Origin: Escherichia phage vB_Eco_F31
Strand: one strand, 5' to 3'
Length of the DNA: 64,000 nt
Sequence record: OP870147.1
Shown here: piece after piece, positions 13,083-60,644 of the stretch
Layout of the letters: every line of letters begins with the position of its first letter
How positions within the stretch are numbered: the first letter of the stretch is position 1
Notes under the pieces: model-generated
The model's input: only the letters and a program-made list of their open reading frames with translations
Databases searched by the model: none
What the model was told of the DNA's origin: nothing
Position numbers and translations under genes: made by a program

Positions 13083-14896
13083 TGGTGTTTAACCCTATGC
13101 ATGATTTCTTTATTTTTACCGAGATTAAATCCGCGTTCGTTCGGATTTCCCAAATAACCGCATGTTCTTCTTATGGTGTTCATCTTTTTAGGATCAGTTT
13201 CTCCGCAAACTGAACAAACAAATCCGTTTTCAGTAGGAGTCATTTCATGGGTACTTCCACATGTAAAACATTTATCTACTGGCATATTAACACCAAAATA
13301 ATCTAAATGTTGTGCAGCATAATCCCAGACGGCCTCAAGTCCCTTTAAATTGTTTTTCATATCTGGAAGTTCAACATAAGAAATGTGACCACCTGTCGCA
13401 ATGAAATGATATGGCGCTTCACGAGAAATCTTTTCAAACGGAGTAATATTTTCTTCTACTGAAACGTGGAAACTGTTAGTGTACCAGCCTTTATCGGTAA
13501 CATCCTTTACACTTCCATATTTTTCTGTATCGAGTTTACAGAAGCGATAACAAAGGTTTTCAGCAGGAGTCGAATATAAACTAAAAGCAAATCCAGTTCT
13601 TTCAGACCACTGTTTAAGATGAGCATTCATTTTAGTTAAAATTTCTTGCCCAATATCACGACCAACAAGAATATTCAATTCGTGAATACCAATGTATCCT
13701 AAAGACACTGAACTTCTACCGTTTTTAAATAACTCAATTATGTCGTCATCAGGTTTAAGACGAACCCCGAATGCACCTTCTTGGTAAAGAATAGGAGCAA
13801 CAGTCGCTTTAACTCCTTTTAAGGAACTAATTCTACACATCAAAGCTTCAAAACACAGGTCCATTCGTTCGTTAAATAGCTCAACAAATTTCTGTTCATT
13901 GAACTGTGTTCCAATATAAGAATCTAACGCAATACGAGGAAGATTCAGTGTTACAACACCAAGATTATTACGTCCATCAAGAATTTCATTACCAGTCGAA
14001 TCTTTCCATACGCTCAAGAAACTACGGCAACCCATTGGAGAAACTGGAACTGAAGAACCGGTAATAGCTTTATTATTCTTAACCGAAATAATGTCAGGAT
14101 ACATTCTTTTGCTTGCACATTCTAACGCAAGTTGTTTAATATCATAGTTTGGATCATCTTTATAAAGATTAACACCTTCTTCAACAAACATAACAAGTTT
14201 AGGAAAAATAGGAGTTATTCCATCACGACCAAGACCTTTAATGCGGTTTTTAAGAATTGCCTTCTGAATCATTCGTTCAGTCCAGTCAGTTCCCGTACCA
14301 AATGTAATTGTTACAAAAGGCGTTTGTCCGTTTGAACTAAAGAGAGTATTTACTTCGTATTCATAAGCTTGGAATGCGTCATAGACATCTTTTTCTGTTT
14401 TAGATTGAGCATAATTCAACGCATCAGCGATTTGCCATTTTTCTGCATCTTCAACATGTTTAGCGTATGTGCGTTTAACATAAGGAGAAAGAACTTTATC
14501 TACATTCGCAAATGTAGTTCCGCCATACTGGTGTGAAGCAACTTGTGCGGTAATTTGTGCCATAATTGCAGTAGCAACACCAATAGATTTAGGCGTTTCA
14601 ATTTGAGCATTGCCTAATTTAAATCCATTCTCAAGCATCCCCTTTAAATCGACTAAACAGCAATTGGTAAACGGAAGAGCAGGAGAATAATCAATATCAT
14701 GCATGTGAATGATTCCGCTTTCATGCGCATTCATAATAAAAGACGGGACCATATTTTTGGCAATGTGCTTAGACACAATACCAGCCATAAGGTCCCGTTG
14801 AGTTGGAAAAACACGAGAATCTTTATTAGCATTCTCGTTCAAAAGATCTTTATTAGTTTTATAAATTAATCCTTCAATTTCTTTTTCAATTTTCAT
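13079..14896 (-). CDS. nrdD: anaerobic ribonucleoside-triphosphate reductase NrdD
   Basis: 605 aa, C-terminal glycyl-radical motif RRTCGYLG and Cys-rich zinc site; uninterrupted (no intron). Confidence 0.95.
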   Translation of the reverse strand: MKIEKEIEGLIYKTNKDLLNENANKDSRVFPTQRDLMAGIVSKHIAKNMVPSFIMNAHESGIIHMHDIDYSPALPFTNCCLVDLKGMLENGFKLGNAQIETPKSIGVATAIMAQITAQVASHQYGGTTFANVDKVLSPYVKRTYAKHVEDAEKWQIADALNYAQSKTEKDVYDAFQAYEYEVNTLFSSNGQTPFVTITFGTGTDWTERMIQKAILKNRIKGLGRDGITPIFPKLVMFVEEGVNLYKDDPNYDIKQLALECASKRMYPDIISVKNNKAITGSSVPVSPMGCRSFLSVWKDSTGNEILDGRNNLGVVTLNLPRIALDSYIGTQFNEQKFVELFNERMDLCFEALMCRISSLKGVKATVAPILYQEGAFGVRLKPDDDIIELFKNGRSSVSLGYIGIHELNILVGRDIGQEILTKMNAHLKQWSERTGFAFSLYSTPAENLCYRFCKLDTEKYGSVKDVTDKGWYTNSFHVSVEENITPFEKISREAPYHFIATGGHISYVELPDMKNNLKGLEAVWDYAAQHLDYFGVNMPVDKCFTCGSTHEMTPTENGFVCSVCGETDPKKMNTIRRTCGYLGNPNERGFNLGKNKEIMHRVKHQ

Positions 14897-16127: not shown

Positions 16128-16484
16128 TTAACCCCGGAGTTTATTGAGCTCTTCATAATCAATCCAGGATTCTAGCCCTGACGGCAGGTCACATTCAATG
16201 TTCCACAGAAGCTCTTCAATGGCTTGCAGGCGATTATATTCTTCAACGGTAATGGTAACCATTGGTGCAACCGGTTCTGCCTTTTTAACCATCATGTCGT
16301 TCATCAGGACGTAAAGGTCATCACGAACGACAGTGTCGTTCCATCCCCATGATTTGGCTTCGTAAGCTAATGATGAAGGGAGCACATTTAAAACTTCAAT
16401 AATAGTTGGAGCATCAGGACCAAGTTCATTGGCACAAACTTCGTATACATCTTGGAAATCTTTAAGATTTAATGAATATGTCAT
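16128..16484 (-). CDS. hypothetical protein
   Basis: 118-aa ORF. Confidence 0.5.
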   Translation of the reverse strand: MTYSLNLKDFQDVYEVCANELGPDAPTIIEVLNVLPSSLAYEAKSWGWNDTVVRDDLYVLMNDMMVKKAEPVAPMVTITVEEYNRLQAIEELLWNIECDLPSGLESWIDYEELNKLRG

Positions 16485-16502
16485 TTAAAATTTTCTCGCA
16501 GG

Positions 16503-16799
16503 TTATTGTTCTACCCATGAACAAGAGACTTCAAAATCAGGACCACCGTATTCCCAGTGATATTCACCAACAGGAATCCAGTCACCGTGCTCGTTTTCTT
16601 CATAGTCCTCAGGCTCAAGGCCAACGAATCGCCATTGGACACCGATGATTCGATTACCCATCATTACTCGAAATTCGCCCCATGGATTATCGATAGCATA
16701 CTGAATATCGTTCTTGGCACGAGAGCACATTTCTTGATATAATAAAGCTTCTAATTCACCCTGGTCATAAGGGCCAGGGAAAGTTAAATCAATACTCAT
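16503..16799 (-). CDS. hypothetical protein
   Basis: 98-aa acidic ORF. Confidence 0.5.
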   Translation of the reverse strand: MSIDLTFPGPYDQGELEALLYQEMCSRAKNDIQYAIDNPWGEFRVMMGNRIIGVQWRFVGLEPEDYEENEHGDWIPVGEYHWEYGGPDFEVSCSWVEQ

Positions 16800-25445: not shown

Positions 25446-25580
25446 TTTACCATACTCGTTTCAATAAGATTCACTATGCCGTTTACCATGTTATAAGTAA
25501 ACATCGGATAATTGTATTGTACTACAACATAAGCGATAAGCAAAAGTTTCATTTTGTTCTCCGTTTGTTTTGATAGGACT

Positions 25581-25609
25581 ACTATAACATAGTCCTACCA
25601 AGATGTAAA
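25581..25609 (-). promoter_or_regulatory. early promoter / stem-loop cassette
   Basis: TTTACA-N17-TATAGT; TAGGACT/AGTCCTA brackets the -10. Confidence 0.6.
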
Positions 25610-25843
25610 CTACCGATTGTGTTTTAAATGTTGATAAAGTTCTTCAACTTGTTTTGGGTCCAAAACAATTAAGTCATTTTCTTGACGAAGATAAATCCAT
25701 CCCTTATCCCCAGGGCCATTTTTACAAAACATCACCACCGTATCATCATCTTCAGCGCTTTCAGGTAAAAGTTCAAGTACACCGTCTTCAGATTTTCCAG
25801 TATAATCGTAAAGCATAATATCCTCACATAATCTCGTTAACAT
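25610..25843 (-). CDS. hypothetical protein
   Basis: 77-aa acidic ORF. Confidence 0.5.
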   Translation of the reverse strand: MLTRLCEDIMLYDYTGKSEDGVLELLPESAEDDDTVVMFCKNGPGDKGWIYLRQENDLIVLDPKQVEELYQHLKHNR

Positions 25844-29718: not shown

Positions 29719-29934
29719 TTATTGATAAAATGGAGTTAAAGCCCAAGATTCTTTAGATACCATATTGGCGAAATGCCTCATCTCTTCGATTTGGCGACGA
29801 CGCTGGTCAGCATAGTCTTCTTCGCCTTCTTCCTTACAATCTTCAAGGTCTTCTTCAAGATACTTTAAGTATTCACTACAAATTTTGTTGACCTTTTCTT
29901 GAAAGTCCAATAACCCAGTAATAGTAGAAGCCAT
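29719..29934 (-). CDS. hypothetical protein
   Basis: 71-aa acidic ORF. Confidence 0.5.
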   Translation of the reverse strand: MASTITGLLDFQEKVNKICSEYLKYLEEDLEDCKEEGEEDYADQRRRQIEEMRHFANMVSKESWALTPFYQ

Positions 29935-30200: not shown

Positions 30201-30414
30201 AAGGAATTTCCTCATCGGTGGCAAGGTCATATTCGACCAATTGGATAGGCTCATTAATACCATATCCACGTACAGTGATATCAGTTGTCGGATAGTTTCC
30301 AGTAATATCACCCATTCTAAATGCTTCAGTGAATGATTGCTCGCCTGAGCAACTAAACCAGGCGGCAAAACATTTTAAAACACCTTCAGACCCTTCTATA
30401 ATCAATTTAGCCAT
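30190..30414 (-). CDS. hypothetical protein
   Basis: 74-aa ORF; ATG overlaps stop of grcA-like gene. Confidence 0.45.
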   Translation of the reverse strand: MAKLIIEGSEGVLKCFAAWFSCSGEQSFTEAFRMGDITGNYPTTDITVRGYGINEPIQLVEYDLATDEEIPYVD

Positions 30415-30777
30415 TATAGACTCTCAGTAAAGGTACGAGCGATAACGTCGCGCTGCTGTTCCGGAGTCAGAGAGTTAAAGCGAACTGCATAACCGGATAC
30501 ACGGATGGTCAACTGCGGATATTTTTCTGGATGCTTAACTGCATCTTCCAGAGTTTCACGACGCAGAACATTAACGTTCAGGTGTTGACCACCTTCAATT
30601 TTAACTTTAGGGTTGATGTTCAATTTCAATTTCACGGGCATTCAAACCGTAGAAAATTTCCGGGTCTACAATAGCGTCTTCTTTAAAAGTCTTAGAGACA
30701 ATAATCCGGGCTTGAGTACCGTCTTCAAAATAAATAGTGCCTTTGTGTGTGCCTTCAAGAATTTGATATGCTTTCAT
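30414..30777 (-). pseudogene. grcA: grcA/yfiD-like glycyl-radical cofactor gene, split by a 1-nt frameshift
   Basis: N-part ATG 30777 to stop 30607 (56 aa); C-part 30641..30414 in the +1 frame ends [33 protein letters not shown]; the two parts align colinearly to GrcA across the shift. Confidence 0.6.
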
Positions 30778-31664: not shown

Positions 31665-31693
31665 ATGTTAGGTCCTTCGACTCGCTATGTAAA
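31665..31693 (-). promoter_or_regulatory. early promoter
   Basis: TTTACA-N17-TAACAT in the 173-bp GC-richer non-coding gap 31629..31801. Confidence 0.45.
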
Positions 31694-31801
31694 CCCATTA
31701 CCGCACTTGGGCTCGACCTTATTACAGGTTGGAAAAGGTACATCACTCAGAGGACTCGACGTTCATGAGGAGAGGTTGCGTTTCCCTTTATTAGGCAAGA
31801 A

Positions 31802-32131
31802 TTATACTCTAGGCTTTTGAGCTTGTTTGGTATTGGATTCCCATGCGGCTTTGGTAATTTTGTTAGCGGCATAACCAAAGGCATTAGATAGAACACCTTT
31901 AGAGTTGAATACATCCAATCCAATAAGTACACCGGCTGTGTTAAATTTAGGAGCAAAGTACGCATTAGTTTTAGAAAGAGCTTTTTTCAATTCAGGGTCT
32001 TGAACCAAGCCATCAAAAACGCCTTTACTATTTACTTTGTATGTTACTTTGGGATTTTTACCTTCTTCGATAGCAGCTTTCTGTTCCGCAGATAATGTAA
32101 CTTCAGTGATAAACTCCTGATATGTTTTCAT
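31802..32131 (-). CDS. internal protein (capsid-targeted)
   Basis: N-terminal capsid targeting sequence MKTYQEFITE. Confidence 0.75.
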   Translation of the reverse strand: MKTYQEFITEVTLSAEQKAAIEEGKNPKVTYKVNSKGVFDGLVQDPELKKALSKTNAYFAPKFNTAGVLIGLDVFNSKGVLSNAFGYAANKITKAAWESNTKQAQKPRV

Positions 32132-32156
32132 TTTGTTCCTATTGTTTTAATTTATG

Positions 32157-32471
32157 TTATTCTTTAGGGAAGTTTTTAGAGTATGCATCATAAAGTTTAT
32201 TACCAATACGACGGAAGACTTTAGCTGCAAAACGGTTTTCAGGGTTTTTAATCATGATTTGCATCATGTAAGTTCCTGCATCCGAAAGAGCTTCTTCATA
32301 GTACCCATTAATTTCTTTAAGAGTCCTACGTTTACCACCAGGACCATCAACAGTAATTTTCCATTTACCTGTAGAAGTGCGGCTCGGTGGCTCAACTTGT
32401 TCAATCCAAATATAACCACCTTCAACGCGTTGGTTGGCGGATTCTGCAATAAATTCTTTATACGTTTTCAT
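32157..32471 (-). CDS. internal protein (capsid-targeted)
   Basis: CTS MKTYKEFIAE. Confidence 0.75.
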   Translation of the reverse strand: MKTYKEFIAESANQRVEGGYIWIEQVEPPSRTSTGKWKITVDGPGGKRRTLKEINGYYEEALSDAGTYMMQIMIKNPENRFAAKVFRRIGNKLYDAYSKNFPKE

Positions 32472-32535
32472 TTTTTGTTTCCTTGTTTGTTTTGATAGAG
32501 TAATTATACCATATTAATACTTAAGCGTAAACAAT

Positions 32536-36241: not shown

Positions 36242-36269
36242 AATATTCTCCTCATGTTTTAATAGGACT

Positions 36270-36298
36270 ACTATAATATAGCCCTATCAGTTTGTACA
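36270..36298 (-). promoter_or_regulatory. early promoter / stem-loop cassette
   Basis: TGTACA-N17-TATAGT; TAGGACT/AGCCCTA brackets the -10. Confidence 0.55.
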
Positions 36299-36299
36299 C

Positions 36300-36500
36300 T
36301 TATTTTGACATTTCTTCGATGTCACGACGATACCCATCACGAACTTCACGAAGAGCTTCAAGGCCACACATAGGCTCGATACCAGTAATGTGAACTTGAT
36401 TAATCTGATACTCTACATCTTCTAACTGAGCGAAAACATAACGACGTTCTGCTGCACAACCAGGTTTAGCTTTACCGAAACGTTTATTCAAAGTAGTCAT
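36300..36500 (-). CDS. hypothetical protein
   Basis: Start placed at ATG 36500 (MTTLNKRF...). Confidence 0.5.
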   Translation of the reverse strand: MTTLNKRFGKAKPGCAAERRYVFAQLEDVEYQINQVHITGIEPMCGLEALREVRDGYRRDIEEMSK

Positions 36501-36538
36501 TTTTATATCTCCATTCACTCATTTGTTTTGATAGGTCT

Positions 36539-36567
36539 ATAGTATCAACAACTACAGACCTTGTAAA
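36539..36567 (-). promoter_or_regulatory. early promoter / stem-loop cassette
   Basis: TTTACA-N17-TACTAT; AGGTCT/AGACCT brackets the -10. Confidence 0.6.
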
Positions 36568-36580
36568 CTGTTTTGTGAAA

Positions 36581-37565: not shown

Positions 37566-37817
37566 TTAAATTTCACGACATGCGATATTATATTCATCCC
37601 AGAGGTCATCATGTGAAGCCTCTACCAATGGAACGATTGTACCGTTTATGTCTTCATTATAAGGGCAAATTGTACAGTGCGCATCTTCGAATCGGATGCC
37701 TTTGTGTTCAGATTTTTTATAACGCATATCGAATATCTTTGCAAACTTTTCACGAGTAATGGTTTTACCAACCACTTTGGTTCCGATACTTTCGTAATAA
37801 ATCATTGTGGACTCCAT
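37566..37817 (-). CDS. hypothetical protein
   Basis: 83-aa ORF. Confidence 0.5.
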   Translation of the reverse strand: MESTMIYYESIGTKVVGKTITREKFAKIFDMRYKKSEHKGIRFEDAHCTICPYNEDINGTIVPLVEASHDDLWDEYNIACREI

Positions 37818-37833
37818 TTGTTTTGATAGGACT

Positions 37834-37862
37834 ACTATAACATAGCCCTATCTTGTTGTAAA
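37834..37862 (-). promoter_or_regulatory. early promoter / stem-loop cassette
   Basis: TTTACA-N17-TATAGT; GATAGGACT/AGCCCTATC brackets the -10. Confidence 0.6.
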
Positions 37863-37867
37863 CTGTT

Positions 37868-40904: not shown

Positions 40905-40931
40905 TTTGTTTTCCTCTTGATTTGATGTGAT

Positions 40932-40960
40932 TACTATAACATAAACTTACTTAGATGTAA
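40932..40960 (-). promoter_or_regulatory. early promoter
   Basis: TTTACA-N17-TATAGT upstream of ATG 40904. Confidence 0.55.
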
Positions 40961-41145
40961 ATTATTTCAACGTCACCTTTAGCTGCTTTATAACCTTCAG
41001 CCCAAGATACAACAGAGTTTTTATCTGAGGATTCAAATTCAGGCATTGGACTTTCACCAATATTCACACAGTATGTTTCTTCATTTTCATCGAACCAAAT
41101 AATTAAAGTAGTCATTTTGTTTACTCCTCTGTTGTTGATAAACCC

Positions 41146-41183: not shown

Positions 41184-41489
41184 TTAATTTTTCCAACTTA
41201 ACAACTTGTAGTGTCCTTCATTCATACGTGGTTTATCCCAAGAAATACTAATATATGATTCACCGTCAATAGAAGTCGCCGGGTTTTTCTCTACCGTAAG
41301 ACCTTCACTTTCCAGCCATTCAATAGTATTTGAGCATAAATCAGAAGAACACCTCATCGGGAACCGGCAAGATTTTTCACCTTTAGCCGCAGTGTTATAC
41401 ATCTTTTCTAAAATACGCTTTTGCACGTTTTTAAAAATAGTTTCAGCAGATTCTTCAGATTTTTTATTCAGTTCAGTGTAAAGACTCAT
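41184..41489 (-). CDS. hypothetical protein
   Basis: 101-aa ORF. Confidence 0.5.
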   Translation of the reverse strand: MSLYTELNKKSEESAETIFKNVQKRILEKMYNTAAKGEKSCRFPMRCSSDLCSNTIEWLESEGLTVEKNPATSIDGESYISISWDKPRMNEGHYKLLSWKN

Positions 41490-42637: not shown

Positions 42638-42805
42638 TTAACCCGGAACGGTTTTAAGAAACTTCCAATGTCCGAATTCATTTTTAAAATAAACATAATC
42701 AGCATGTTGATATAATGAATTAATTAACCTATCGGAAATAACTGTTTCACGTTCGTTAAAATAAAACGTTAAATCATGAACTACCAGATACACATTGCCT
42801 TTCAT
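42638..42805 (-). CDS. hypothetical protein
   Basis: Start placed at ATG 42805 (MKGNVYLVVHDL...), SD GAGGAAAA, just downstream of tRNA-Arg. Confidence 0.45.
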   Translation of the reverse strand: MKGNVYLVVHDLTFYFNERETVISDRLINSLYQHADYVYFKNEFGHWKFLKTVPG

Positions 42806-42823
42806 ATTTTCCTCACTTGAAGT

Positions 42824-42900
<77 letters not shown>

Positions 42901-44245: not shown

Positions 44246-44435
44246 TTTTATCCATAACGATAGCGATTAAGCTGATTAGAAATGCTACTACCAATGAGAT
44301 AGAGTTTTCAGTTGTTGTCAGTAGTCCACAAATGAATCCTACAAACATCGAAAAACTAAAAGCCATTGAAGCAATTACTACAGCAACATTACGAATCAGT
44401 TCAGCGCGTTTCATTTTATTTCTCCATTTACTCAT
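44229..44435 (-). CDS. hypothetical membrane protein
   Basis: 68 aa, two hydrophobic helices. Confidence 0.5.
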   Translation of the reverse strand: MSKWRNKMKRAELIRNVAVVIASMAFSFSMFVGFICGLLTTTENSISLVVAFLISLIAIVMDKIAKGE

Positions 44436-44451
44436 TTGTTTTGATAGGACT

Positions 44452-44480
44452 ACTATAACATAGTCCTATCTGCATGTAAA
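44452..44480 (-). promoter_or_regulatory. early promoter / stem-loop cassette
   Basis: TTTACA-N17-TATAGT; perfect 9-bp repeat GATAGGACT/AGTCCTATC brackets the -10. Confidence 0.65.
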
Positions 44481-44484
44481 CTAC

Positions 44485-56550: not shown

Positions 56551-57577
56551 TTCAAGTGTTATCTATCGTGCAATAGTTACATCAAAATTTAGAACAGAAA
56601 AAATGCTGAATTTTTATAATTCAGTTGGGGATGGAGATGATAAGAACTCCATTTATATTACGTTCGGACGTTCAGAGCCTTGGGCGTCAAATGAAAATGA
56701 GGTGGGCTTCGCCCCACCTTATCCTACAGATTCTGTTCTTGGTGTTACTGATATGTGGACCCATATGATGGGTACCGTTAAAGTTTTACCTTCAATGTTA
56801 GATTCTGTTATTCCTAGGCGTGATTGGGGAGATGTGCGATATCCGGACCCTTACACGTTTAGAATTAACGATATAGTCGCGTGTAATACTGCTCCGTACA
56901 ACGCGACAGAAGTTGGAGCTGGTTGGTTAATTTACCGTTGTTTAGACGTCCCTGACGTAGGGCTCTGTTCAATAGAATCTTTAGATAATAAAGATGAATG
57001 TCTTAAATTGGGTGGTAAATGGACTCCGTCTGTTCGTTCTATGTCTCCTCCTGAAGGCAGAGGCGATGCTAATGGGGTTATCGAAACCGGTGATGGATAT
57101 ATTTGGGAATATCTTTATGAGATTCCTGCCGATGTGTCAATTAACCGTTGCACTAATGAATACCTTGTAGTTCCATGGCCGGAAGAAATTAAAGAAGACC
57201 CAACCCGTTGGGGATATGAAAATAACTTAACTTGGCAACAAGATGACTATGGCTTGATTTACCGTGTTAAAGCCAATACGATGCGGTTTAAAGCATATTT
57301 TGATTCGGTTTATTTCCCTGAGGCAGCTTTGCCTGGTAACAAGGGTTTTAGACAGATATCAATTATCGCAAACCCGTTAGAAGCTAAGAAAAATCCAAAT
57401 GACCCTAATGTTAAAGCAGAAAAGGATTATTACGACCCTAGAGACTTGCAACGTCATTCTGGTGAAATGATTTATATGGAAAACCGACCACCTGTTATTA
57501 TGGCAATGGACCAAACAGAAGAAATTAACATTTTGTTTATGTTTTCCCAACCCGTTGGGGATATGAAAATAACTTAA
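56543..57577 (+). CDS. 8: baseplate wedge protein gp8 with aberrant 10-residue C-terminal tail
   Basis: 344 aa; frame runs from duplication copy 1 into copy 2 out of frame, adding SQPVGDMKIT after ...INILFMF. Confidence 0.85.
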   Translation: MNDSSVIYRAIVTSKFRTEKMLNFYNSVGDGDDKNSIYITFGRSEPWASNENEVGFAPPYPTDSVLGVTDMWTHMMGTVKVLPSMLDSVIPRRDWGDVRYPDPYTFRINDIVACNTAPYNATEVGAGWLIYRCLDVPDVGLCSIESLDNKDECLKLGGKWTPSVRSMSPPEGRGDANGVIETGDGYIWEYLYEIPADVSINRCTNEYLVVPWPEEIKEDPTRWGYENNLTWQQDDYGLIYRVKANTMRFKAYFDSVYFPEAALPGNKGFRQISIIANPLEAKKNPNDPNVKAEKDYYDPRDLQRHSGEMIYMENRPPVIMAMDQTEEINILFMFSQPVGDMKIT

Positions 57578-57892
57578 CTTGGCAACAAGATGACTATGGC
57601 TTGATTTACCGTGTTAAAGCCAATACGATGCGGTTTAAAGCATATTTTGATTCGGTTTATTTCCCTGAGGCAGCTTTGCCTGGTAACAAGGGTTTTAGAC
57701 AGATATCAATTATCGCAAACCCGTTAGAAGCTAAGAAAAATCCAAATGACCCTAATGTTAAAGCAGAAAAGGATTATTACGACCCTAGAGACTTGCAACG
57801 TCATTCTGGTGAAATGATTTATATGGAAAACCGACCACCTGTTATTATGGCAATGGACCAAACAGAAGAAATTAACATTTTGTTTATGTTTT
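57199..57892 (+). repeat. perfect tandem direct duplication, 2 x 347 bp
   Basis: 57199..57545 and 57546..57892 are identical on inspection; flanking bases differ so boundaries are exact. Confidence 0.9.
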
Positions 57893-57894
57893 AA
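57601..57894 (+). pseudogene. duplicated 3' fragment of gene 8
   Basis: 97-aa TTG-initiated ORF identical to gp8 residues ~238-334, ending at the original stop. Confidence 0.7.
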
Positions 57895-57897
57895 TTA

Positions 57898-57921
57898 GGG
57901 AGCCTTCGGGCTCCCATTTTT
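57898..57921 (+). terminator. rho-independent terminator after gene 8 region
   Basis: GGGAGCC-TTCG-GGCTCCC followed by ATTTTTG. Confidence 0.75.
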
Positions 57922-57926
57922 GTATC

Positions 57927-57934
57927 TATAAATA
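57927..57934 (+). promoter_or_regulatory. late promoter for gene 9
   Basis: Exact TATAAATA 33 nt upstream of ATG 57967. Confidence 0.65.
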
Positions 57935-57966: not shown

Positions 57967-58839
57967 ATGGCATTTTTTAAGCAAACTCCTAAACAATTAA
58001 TCGATACCGGCGAAATTGGTAATGCCTCAACAGGTGATATCTTATTCGACGGTGGTAATAAAATAAATGACGATATCAACGCTATTTACAATGCATTTGG
58101 CGATCAACGTAAAATGGCCGTAGCAGATGGAACCGGACCTACAGGTCAAACTATTCATGCCACAGGATATTATCAAAAAGGAAAGGCGGTCGATTATCAA
58201 ACTCCTATTAAACCAGGCACCATGCATGATATTGATGCTTCTGATGGCGGTGTGATTGTTATTATTGACCGTCCTGAATTAGGTGACTCTGTAGAATTCA
58301 TAAACTCTAATGGGTCTATTTCTGTTAACAATCCTTTAAGTATCCAAGTAACCGATGGTTCGATTAAAGGTGTTCTTAATAATCTTGTTATTTCCACCCC
58401 TTATACCCATGTTGTTCTTCGTTGTGTTGAACTTAATGGACCAACTTCAGTATGGAATTATTCTACTGATAGCATGTTTGGGCAGAAAGAATCTCCTGTC
58501 GATGGGACTTGGAGTCTTACAGGAAACACAGTTTCTATTCCTCTGTTTTATCGCACGGATTATAACATGGCTAAATTGCTTGTTACATGCCAATCCGCTG
58601 ACGGTAGAAAAATAAAAACATGCGAAATAAATATTCTAATAGATACAATTAACTCAGAAGTTCTTTCTACCGAATTTGCAGTAATGCGAGTTGGTAATGT
58701 AGATGAAACCGACGAGATTGCTAATATTAGCTTTAGTATTATTAACAACTTTGCTACTATGACGATTACATCCGATATTATTGGATTACGTTCAGCAGTT
58801 AAAATTATCTCAACTCAGAAAATTGGGGTCGCTCAATAA
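57967..58839 (+). CDS. 9: baseplate wedge tail-fibre connector gp9
   Basis: 290 aa; late promoter TATAAATA at 57927. Confidence 0.85.
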   Translation: MAFFKQTPKQLIDTGEIGNASTGDILFDGGNKINDDINAIYNAFGDQRKMAVADGTGPTGQTIHATGYYQKGKAVDYQTPIKPGTMHDIDASDGGVIVIIDRPELGDSVEFINSNGSISVNNPLSIQVTDGSIKGVLNNLVISTPYTHVVLRCVELNGPTSVWNYSTDSMFGQKESPVDGTWSLTGNTVSIPLFYRTDYNMAKLLVTCQSADGRKIKTCEINILIDTINSEVLSTEFAVMRVGNVDETDEIANISFSIINNFATMTITSDIIGLRSAVKIISTQKIGVAQ

Positions 58840-60644
58840 TGAAACAAAATATTAAAATTGGTAACGTCGTTGATGACGGACAAGGCGATTACCTTCGTCG
58901 AGGTGGTGAAAAAATAAATGAGAACTTTGACGAAATCTATTATGAATTAGGTGATGGTGAAGTTCCTTACGCCGCTGGTGCGTGGAAGACTTATGATGCG
59001 GCTGATGGTCTTAATCTTAAGGCCGCTTGGGGTAAATCTTATGCAATTAATACTACTTCTGGACGAGTTTCGGTAAATCTTCCTAAAGGGACAATTGCAG
59101 ACTATAATAAAGTTATTCGTGCTCGTGACGTATTTGCAACTTGGAACATTAACCCTGTTACTTTAATTCCGGCAAACGGAGATACGATTAAAGGTTCTTC
59201 ATCTCCGGTAGAAATTAACGTTCAGTTCTCTGATTTAGAATTAGTTTATTGTGCTCCTGGACGTTGGGAATACATCAAGAACAAACAAATTGATAAAATA
59301 GTTAGCTCTGACATTAGTAATGTTGCTCGTAGAGAATATCTGGTTGAAACCCAAGGTCAGACCGATTTCATGGATGTTTTTAACGGGACCTCTTATAATG
59401 TTAACAACATTCGCGTAAAACATCGTGGCAACGAATTGTACTATGGTGATGTATTCAGTGATAATAGTGATTTTGGTTCTCCAGGCGCTAATCCTGGTGA
59501 ACTGGTTGCACTCGATGGATTTAATATTAGATTACGCCAACCGTGTAATGTTGGGGACACTGTACAAATTGAGACATTCCTAGATGGTGTTTCTCAGTGG
59601 CGTAGTTCATATACTCGTCGCCAAGTTCGCATTTTAGATAGTAAATTGACTGCTAAAAAGTCTATTGACGGAAGTATTTACGTCACTGATTTGAGTACGT
59701 TCCGGTCTATTCCATTTACAGCATTTGGTATTAATCCTACGGAACCACCTAACCCGAATTCGTTAGAAGTTCGCTTCAATGGTATTCTCCAAGAATTAGC
59801 TGGTACTGTTGGAACTCCTATTTTCCGTTGTGAAGGTGTGGATGCTGATTCTGAAGAGTCATGCGCTAATCTCGGTGGGACGTGGACTCAATCGTATACA
59901 GATTATGCGATTGAATATACTGATAATATCCCTAGCGCAATTCTGTTTGACCGTCAATTTGAAGACCAAGACATTATTACCATCACATGGTTTAATAACG
60001 ATTTAGGAACTCTTCTTGAAATGGAAGAAATCCTTGATGTCGCTGATGAGAAATATGTTTCTCAAGGGTCTAACATTGAAATTACTGGTGACGTTGCATT
60101 AACCGATTTCGATAAAATTGGATGGCCTAATGTAGAACCTGTTCCTAAGTATGAACGTGAATTCTCGACTATCTCGGCAATATTTGATACAATTTATCCT
60201 GTCGGGACTATTTACGAAAATGCGGTTAACCCTAATAATCCGGCAACTTATTTAGGTTTTGGTTTGTGGAAAATTTGGGGACAAGGCAAAGTATTAGCAG
60301 GTTGGAATGACGACGCGTCGGATCCTAATTTTGCATTAAATAATAATGACCTTGACGTCAATGGTAACCCTACTCATACCGCAGGTGGTACCGTTGGTGT
60401 AACAACCGTCACATTAGAAAATGCTGATTTACCGGCTACACAAACCGATGAAAAGGTTCTTATTTCTGATGATAATGGTACAGTAATTATAGGCGGTTGC
60501 CAATATGACCCGGATGAAGAAGGTCCTATTTACACTAAATATCGTGAAGACCATGCAAAGACTAACGGATCTCATGTTCCAGCGCGTTCTATAACTAATA
60601 TTCAGCCATCTATAACTGTATACCGTTGGGTAAGGATTGCATAA
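58839..60644 (+). CDS. 10: baseplate wedge / tail pin gp10
   Basis: 601 aa, T4 order and size. Confidence 0.85.

Follow-up and report, generated by a model that had tools for sequence, protein, structure and literature searches.

Gene 8 of this phage raises the question of whether the perfect tandem repeat read over its 3′ end belongs to the phage DNA or was introduced when the record was put together. In the window (the whole stretch of DNA that was analysed, 64,000 nucleotides of the Escherichia phage vB_Eco_F31 record OP870147.1), positions 57199–57545 and 57546–57892 are the same letter for letter: direct string comparison of the two 347-mers gave 347 matches out of 347, in agreement with the sequence-only reading that had first pointed to the repeat. 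Tandem Repeats Finder returned the same array (57199–57892, period 347, 2.0 copies, 100% matches, 0 indels, score 1388), and this was the only tandem array found in the whole 64-kb window. A perfect repeat of 347 bp cannot have arisen by chance. The identity ends exactly with the unit, with 0 further bases shared on the left and 0 on the right as judged by direct string comparison. The junction at 57545/57546 reads ...TTTATGTTTT/CCCAACCCGTTGGGG... and, followed onward from the start of copy 2, ...TTTATGTTTT/CCCAACCC...; microhomology at this junction is 0 bp.

Table 1. Positions of the duplicated unit, of gene 8 and its neighbours, and of a truncated reading frame elsewhere in the window.
Feature	Position	Strand	Description
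Truncated 71-aa ORF	42638–42853	minus	TTTT > TTT deletion relative to MM02
Gene 7, baseplate wedge, 1032 aa	53452–56550	+	ORF; Pfam Gp7 families on homologues of identical length; MM02 annotation, baseplate wedge subunit
Gene 8 as read, 344 aa	56543–57577	+	Native gp8 1–334 plus out-of-frame SQPVGDMKIT
Copy 1 of the 347-bp unit	57199–57545	+	From third base of codon 219 to the T of the native stop codon
Palindrome CCCAAC-CC-GTTGGG (CCCAACCCGTTGGG) at the left breakpoint	57199–57212, repeated at 57546–57559	+	Single-stranded DNA hairpin, −3.7 kcal/mol, z −2.0
Junction, proposed former contig end / contig start	57545–57546	.	0 bp microhomology; absent from the collections searched
Frameshifted tail SQPVGDMKIT and new stop codon	Codons 57545–57574, TAA 57575–57577	+	Out-of-frame reading into copy 2
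Copy 2 of the 347-bp unit	57546–57892	+	100% identical to copy 1
97-aa TTG ORF inside copy 2	57601–57894	+	Intact 3′ fragment of gene 8; PF09215 profile positions 241–337
Gene 8 terminator hairpin GGGAGCC-TTCG-GGCTCCC, then T-run	57898–57915	+	−8.7 kcal/mol, z −4.7; terminator in the MM02 annotation
TATAAATA motif	57927–57934	+	33 nt upstream of the gene 9 ATG
Gene 9, long-tail-fibre connector, 290 aa, intact	57967–58839	+	ORF and homology

The left breakpoint falls on the third base of gene 8 codon 219, while the right breakpoint cuts the native stop codon as T/AA, so that the unit ends one base inside TAA. The anatomy proposed earlier stands, with the minor correction that this end lies inside the stop codon and not at the last sense codon. 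The unit carries the 3′ third of gene 8 only, from codon 219 to the stop, and includes neither a promoter nor a ribosome-binding site. Since the period is not divisible by 3 (347 = 3 × 115 + 2), the gene 8 frame runs from copy 1 into copy 2 out of register, confirming the predicted 344-aa reading frame, which ends ...FMFSQPVGDMKIT. Copy 2, read in its own frame, encodes gp8 residues 220–334 (57547–57891) followed by the native TAA, again as had been proposed. The assignment to gene 8 itself is firm: residues 1–334 align to residues 1–334 of T4 gp8 (PDB 1n7z, 334 aa; phmmer against PDB, E 7.2e-216), and the product matches Pfam PF09215 (E 4e-183) over residues 10–334. The likeness to T4 gp8 is thus collinear from the first residue to the last, but the window ORF goes on at its C-terminus for 10 residues that the homologues lack. 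When the sequence is collapsed to one copy the frame terminates at F334; with two copies it overruns F334 by these 10 residues.

The flanks of the duplication are those of an ordinary gene 8 locus. Upstream, the end of gene 7 overlaps the start of gene 8. Downstream, the normal terminator and the gene 9 promoter motif follow copy 2 as the earlier reading had stated, and the gp8–gp9 spacer on this side is the same as in relatives. We take TATAAATA to be the T4-type late-promoter consensus; counts over the window show no enrichment of this motif (6 occurrences against 7.5 expected), and its assignment here is by position only. Expression of gene 9 should be independent of the duplication. As a separate observation on these neighbouring genes, two 54-nt stretches, one close to the 5′ end of gene 9 (58051–58104) and one close to that of gene 10 (58902–58955), are 70% identical, which is consistent with a shared N-terminal domain (PF07880) and an ancient duplication of the two genes.

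We inspected the sequence upstream of the 97-aa TTG ORF, whose existence the earlier reading had correctly reported, and found no Shine-Dalgarno-like sequence; therefore no separate product is expected from it. Separate expression of this ORF, or of the copy 2 fragment as a whole, was rejected on the grounds that it has neither a promoter nor a Shine-Dalgarno-like sequence and that the same internal codons occur in every wild-type gene 8.

The comparison with gene 8 of close relatives that the sequence-only reading had called for gave a uniform answer. The window is a Mosigvirus (T4-like, Straboviridae) genome, about 98–99% identical to many deposited coliphages. Among the best 40 phage records, all 40 span 1,654 bp for a 2,001-bp query, that is, 347 bp less. 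We also compared ten independent contigs from NCBI, ENA and Logan (L001–L010), each with an identical gp9. All ten encode a 334-aa gp8 and have the same gp8–gp9 spacer, and with a single copy left in the window every one of them can be aligned to it without gaps over 8,873 bp, with 66–167 mismatches. Against MM02, the closest annotated genome, the alignment splits into two HSPs that meet at 57545/57546 and share 347 bp of the subject. A 120-mer taken across the junction matched 115 phage records, only as two swapped halves. Junction patterns, one of them degenerate at the polymorphic positions, were absent from IMG/VR and from JGI metagenome contigs, and the junction was not found in complete E. 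coli genomes or in PLSDB plasmids. As far as the compared sequences go, gene 8 is thus present in a single copy in every relative examined (more than 100 close relatives). Searching the literature for tandem duplication in Mosigvirus gave no result.

The 347-bp unit differs from those of the relatives at 1–7 positions, and no phage record identical to it over its full length was found. The T at unit position 248 is a private allele, and it is present in both copies (57446 and 57793); this very genome therefore served as the template for the second copy. k-mers covering two private markers of the window, its 57446 SNP and the GGG frameshift in vs.6 described below, were absent from IMG/VR and JGI metagenome contigs. 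Look-ups of the 344-aa gp8 and of gp7 found no recorded protein identical to either. Several segments elsewhere in the window (14838–14891, 16133–16795, 29726–29928, 31668–32441 and 41192–41228) gave no megablast alignment to MM02; they look like the mosaic replacement patches that are typical of T4-like accessory regions.

The added residues fall at a position that is nearly fixed across the family. All 120 best homologues (57–88% identity, from phages of many host genera) end at the F334 column, 119 of them with Phe, and none has an extra residue. A distant set (25–60% identity, 270–606 aa) was drawn from an exhaustive search of 1.84 billion representatives, with a homologue counted if the match reaches the C-terminal region. 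Here 37 of 39 end exactly at the F334 position and the other two overshoot it by 1 and 3 residues, so that close and distant homologues together end at this position in 157 of 159 cases. In an AlphaFold2 model (mean pLDDT 85), residues 325–333 are predicted with confidence as a terminal β-strand closed by F334, whereas the model leaves the added tail disordered, with residues 337–344 below pLDDT 50. gp8 is an essential wedge protein; the pathway in which it assembles follows a strict order, and it is also a chaperone of gp6 (PMC3004832). Given the fixed C-terminus, the strand closed by F334 and the essential, ordered role of gp8, a 10-residue tail is unlikely to be neutral or harmless.

This constraint bears on the two ways in which the duplication could be physically real. 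The first is that it is kept by selection, the extended gp8 or the spare 3′ fragment being advantageous (for instance for baseplate stability) or the fragment serving as raw material for a new gene. What speaks for it is the arrangement in the record, in which all flanking signals are intact. However, the arrangement is unique to this one sequence, the zero divergence between the copies gives it no evolutionary age, the 3′ fragment has neither a ribosome-binding site nor a promoter, and the gp8 C-terminus is under strong purifying constraint. We regard selective retention as very improbable.

The second is a genuine, very recent and homology-independent tandem duplication in the phage stock. 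Two sister DNA molecules with breaks near the two hairpins would have been joined illegitimately, and the product would have become fixed when the stock passed through a plaque-purification bottleneck. On this reading gp8 in the virion would have a disordered 10-residue tail, nothing would be expressed from the copy 2 fragment, and gene 9 would still be transcribed normally from the late promoter in front of it. The sequence as read does show both copies, and the private allele at unit position 248 in each is in keeping with a second copy templated from this genome. Since the native gp8 sequence is whole and the tail is predicted to be disordered, function might survive; against this, a C-terminus fixed in 157 of 159 homologues argues that such a tail would be costly.

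T4 readily makes tandem amplifications, and an extra 347 bp would lie well inside its terminal redundancy of about 3 kb (PMC9391042). The characterised events have a recognisable form: microhomology, typically of 6–10 bp, lies at the boundaries, and one copy of it is left between the repeats (Srikant et al. 2022, PMC9391042). The window shares with the T4 dmd–tifA amplifications (PMC9391042; Hp17 amplifications cited there) a head-to-tail repeat and unit boundaries unique to the clone. It differs from them in the remaining features: the T4 amplifications have 6–10 bp of microhomology, cover a whole gene with its promoter, reach several copies under selection and are accompanied by compensating deletions, whereas in the window the microhomology is 0 bp and two copies are present, each confined to the last third of an essential gene. 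As the unit holds neither a complete gene nor a promoter, a dosage benefit is not apparent. The absence of junction homology also led us to reject replication slippage or copy-choice, for which both the + and the − strand nascent 3′ ends were considered; neither has complementarity at the acceptor site.

The persistence of the repeat would likewise be hard to reconcile with a real event. T4-type phages have very active homologous recombination, and perfect direct repeats are good substrates for it, as established T4 genetics shows. A perfect 347-bp repeat should therefore collapse unless selected, and the arrangement has never been seen in the more than 100 close relatives or in any collection searched.

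The sequence structure at the breakpoints could point towards a physical event. The left breakpoint is the exact 5′ base of the palindrome CCCAACCCGTTGGG, and the gene 8 terminator hairpin begins 5 nt past the right breakpoint. As background, 1.7% of positions coincide with the base of a perfect hairpin whose stem has at least 5 bp, and 9.6% are 0–5 nt away from such a hairpin. The joint chance of both breakpoints being near hairpins is about 0.2–0.9%, depending on how leniently this is defined. The figure is a post hoc one, and of the two hairpins the left one is weak. Its palindrome is free of mismatches only in the window and in two of the ten contigs (L004 and L009); the other eight are mismatched at unit position 4. 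The coincidence is compatible with structure-directed breakage, and it could reflect either this, in a real event, or a bias in read ends or terminus calling, in an artefact. Overall, that this is a Mosigvirus isolate caught just after a hairpin-bounded, homology-independent duplication, with gp8 ending in Phe plus 10 residues, appears unlikely to us, if not negligibly so.

A further variation in terminator structure was seen among the relatives. The gene 8 terminator of L009 (MN850590.1, phage moha) has an identical stem with a reverse-complemented tetraloop (GGGAGCC-CGAA-GGCTCCC), whereas the window and the nine other relatives have -TTCG-; this is a loop inversion of the kind made by intra-palindrome template switching.

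From the anatomy of the repeat, its uniqueness, the missing junction homology and the constraint on the gp8 C-terminus we infer an assembly history. The likely explanation is that the second copy is an untrimmed overlap between the start and the end of a contig, left during assembly or finishing and absent from the phage. T4-like genomes are circularly permuted, and an assembler therefore yields a linear contig with overlapping ends. For this genome the two ends of such a contig would have overlapped by 347 bp. If the contig was then circularised and re-opened elsewhere with the overlap left untrimmed, the contig end ...TTTATGTTTT would have been pasted to the contig start CCCAACCC..., and the outcome would be a perfect two-copy tandem repeat inside gene 8. 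In a variant of this route, a terminus-calling step would have mistaken the 347 bp for a direct terminal repeat and placed a copy at each end, after which the sequence was rotated. In the true genome there would be one copy, followed by the usual terminator and gene 9 promoter, and its gp8 is most probably an ordinary 334-aa protein.

Artefacts of this class are well documented. Contigs may run past 100% of a phage genome (PMC8785237), artificial overlaps at the ends have to be trimmed off and a permuted genome is opened anew at a gene of choice (PMC5923482), and circularisation by different assemblers commonly goes wrong by leaving the start–end overlap, tens to thousands of bases long, in duplicate (PMC6966772). 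The window shares with these cases (PMC6966772, PMC8785237, PMC5923482) two adjacent, perfect copies, an arbitrary site, boundaries without sequence homology and the restoration of a canonical, colinear genome on removal of one copy. Its genome type also fits, headful-packaged, permuted T4-like genomes being ones that give overlapping contig ends and are routinely re-opened. The absence of microhomology is the pattern that two arbitrary contig ends would give. Two differences remain. The duplication is internal and not at the sequence ends, so that a rotation or joining step has to be assumed. In addition, the period does not equal a known assembler k-mer, a comparison that applies to de Bruijn assemblers only. 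The usual de Bruijn k-mer overlaps are, for example, 127 or 55, and 347 bp is atypical. This counts in favour of a genuine duplication; the artefact would require an overlap-layout, long-read or terminus-calling route. The SPAdes overlap signature is 127 bp (PMC5923482), whereas overlap-layout and long-read assemblers give overlaps of arbitrary length (PMC6966772). A true terminal feature, in the form of a short direct repeat fixed at the ends of a non-permuted genome, was rejected: the genome is of the T4 type, the MM02 locus having T4-type terminase genes, and the relatives are colinear across the site.

Two other sites in the window bear on the quality of the consensus. A private GG > GGG insertion at 30610 (30607–30612) splits the homologue of T4 vs.6 (the 120-aa CDS MM02_00119) into 75-aa and 56-aa ORFs (30414–30641 and 30607–30777, minus strand). 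The insertion is present in none of 569 matching phage records, the best of which differ by that base alone; it is probably a consensus error, or else marks a fresh pseudogene. Likewise, a private TTTT > TTT deletion at 42652 (42650–42655) truncates a 114-aa hypothetical ORF (MM02_00148) to 71 aa, and is present in none of 121 matching phage records, the best again differing by that base alone. Both of these private homopolymer indels break small ORFs that are conserved in relatives, which suggests an imperfect consensus. A generally poor assembly was also considered and can be held only in part, the two ORF-breaking indels standing beside unbroken essential genes: comparison with MM02 revealed no frameshifted essential gene in the rest of the window.

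The window also contains dispersed repeat families of about 40–90 nt in the early-gene region (at 25564–25613, 32486–32535, 36253–36302, 36522–36571, 37817–37866, 40916–40965 and 44435–44484, together with families D3–D7). On the minus strand these appear as GTTTAC...TATA(A/G)T, resembling T-even early promoters, and often include a small palindrome (AGGACTA...TAGTCCT).

The sequence-only reading had left open a recent duplication, a passage-derived lesion and an assembly artefact. The present results narrow these towards the artefact because microhomology is missing at the junction, gp8 homologues stop at an invariant C-terminus, the arrangement is absent from relatives and collections, and the window has private homopolymer anomalies. 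An untrimmed contig overlap is favoured also because there are exactly two 100% identical copies forming the sole array of the window, because one copy restores colinearity with the relatives, because a real repeat would be expected to collapse and because this class of artefact is so well documented. Against it, the hairpins beside both breakpoints are not predicted by random contig ends and could point to a physical DNA event, and the window is otherwise clean, so the assembly is not generally poor. Given the evidence for an artefact, a virion carrying gp8 with an altered C-terminus, which the earlier reading had raised, becomes the less likely branch.

Neither outcome opens a long-standing question. 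If the second copy is an artefact, its importance is curatorial: the record mis-annotates an essential baseplate gene as encoding a 344-aa gp8, contains a spurious second ‘baseplate wedge’ fragment and overstates the genome length by 347 bp, and a correction is due. A real duplication would amount to a modest curiosity: in this phage family the known duplications make use of microhomology, and this one would have none. The virion gp8 would then end in the C-terminal peptide ...ILFMFSQPVGDMK, and the phage would test how strictly the invariant gp8 C-terminus is required. It would exemplify illegitimate recombination directed by DNA structure in a T4-type phage, as well as a fixed protein terminus that tolerates more change than expected.
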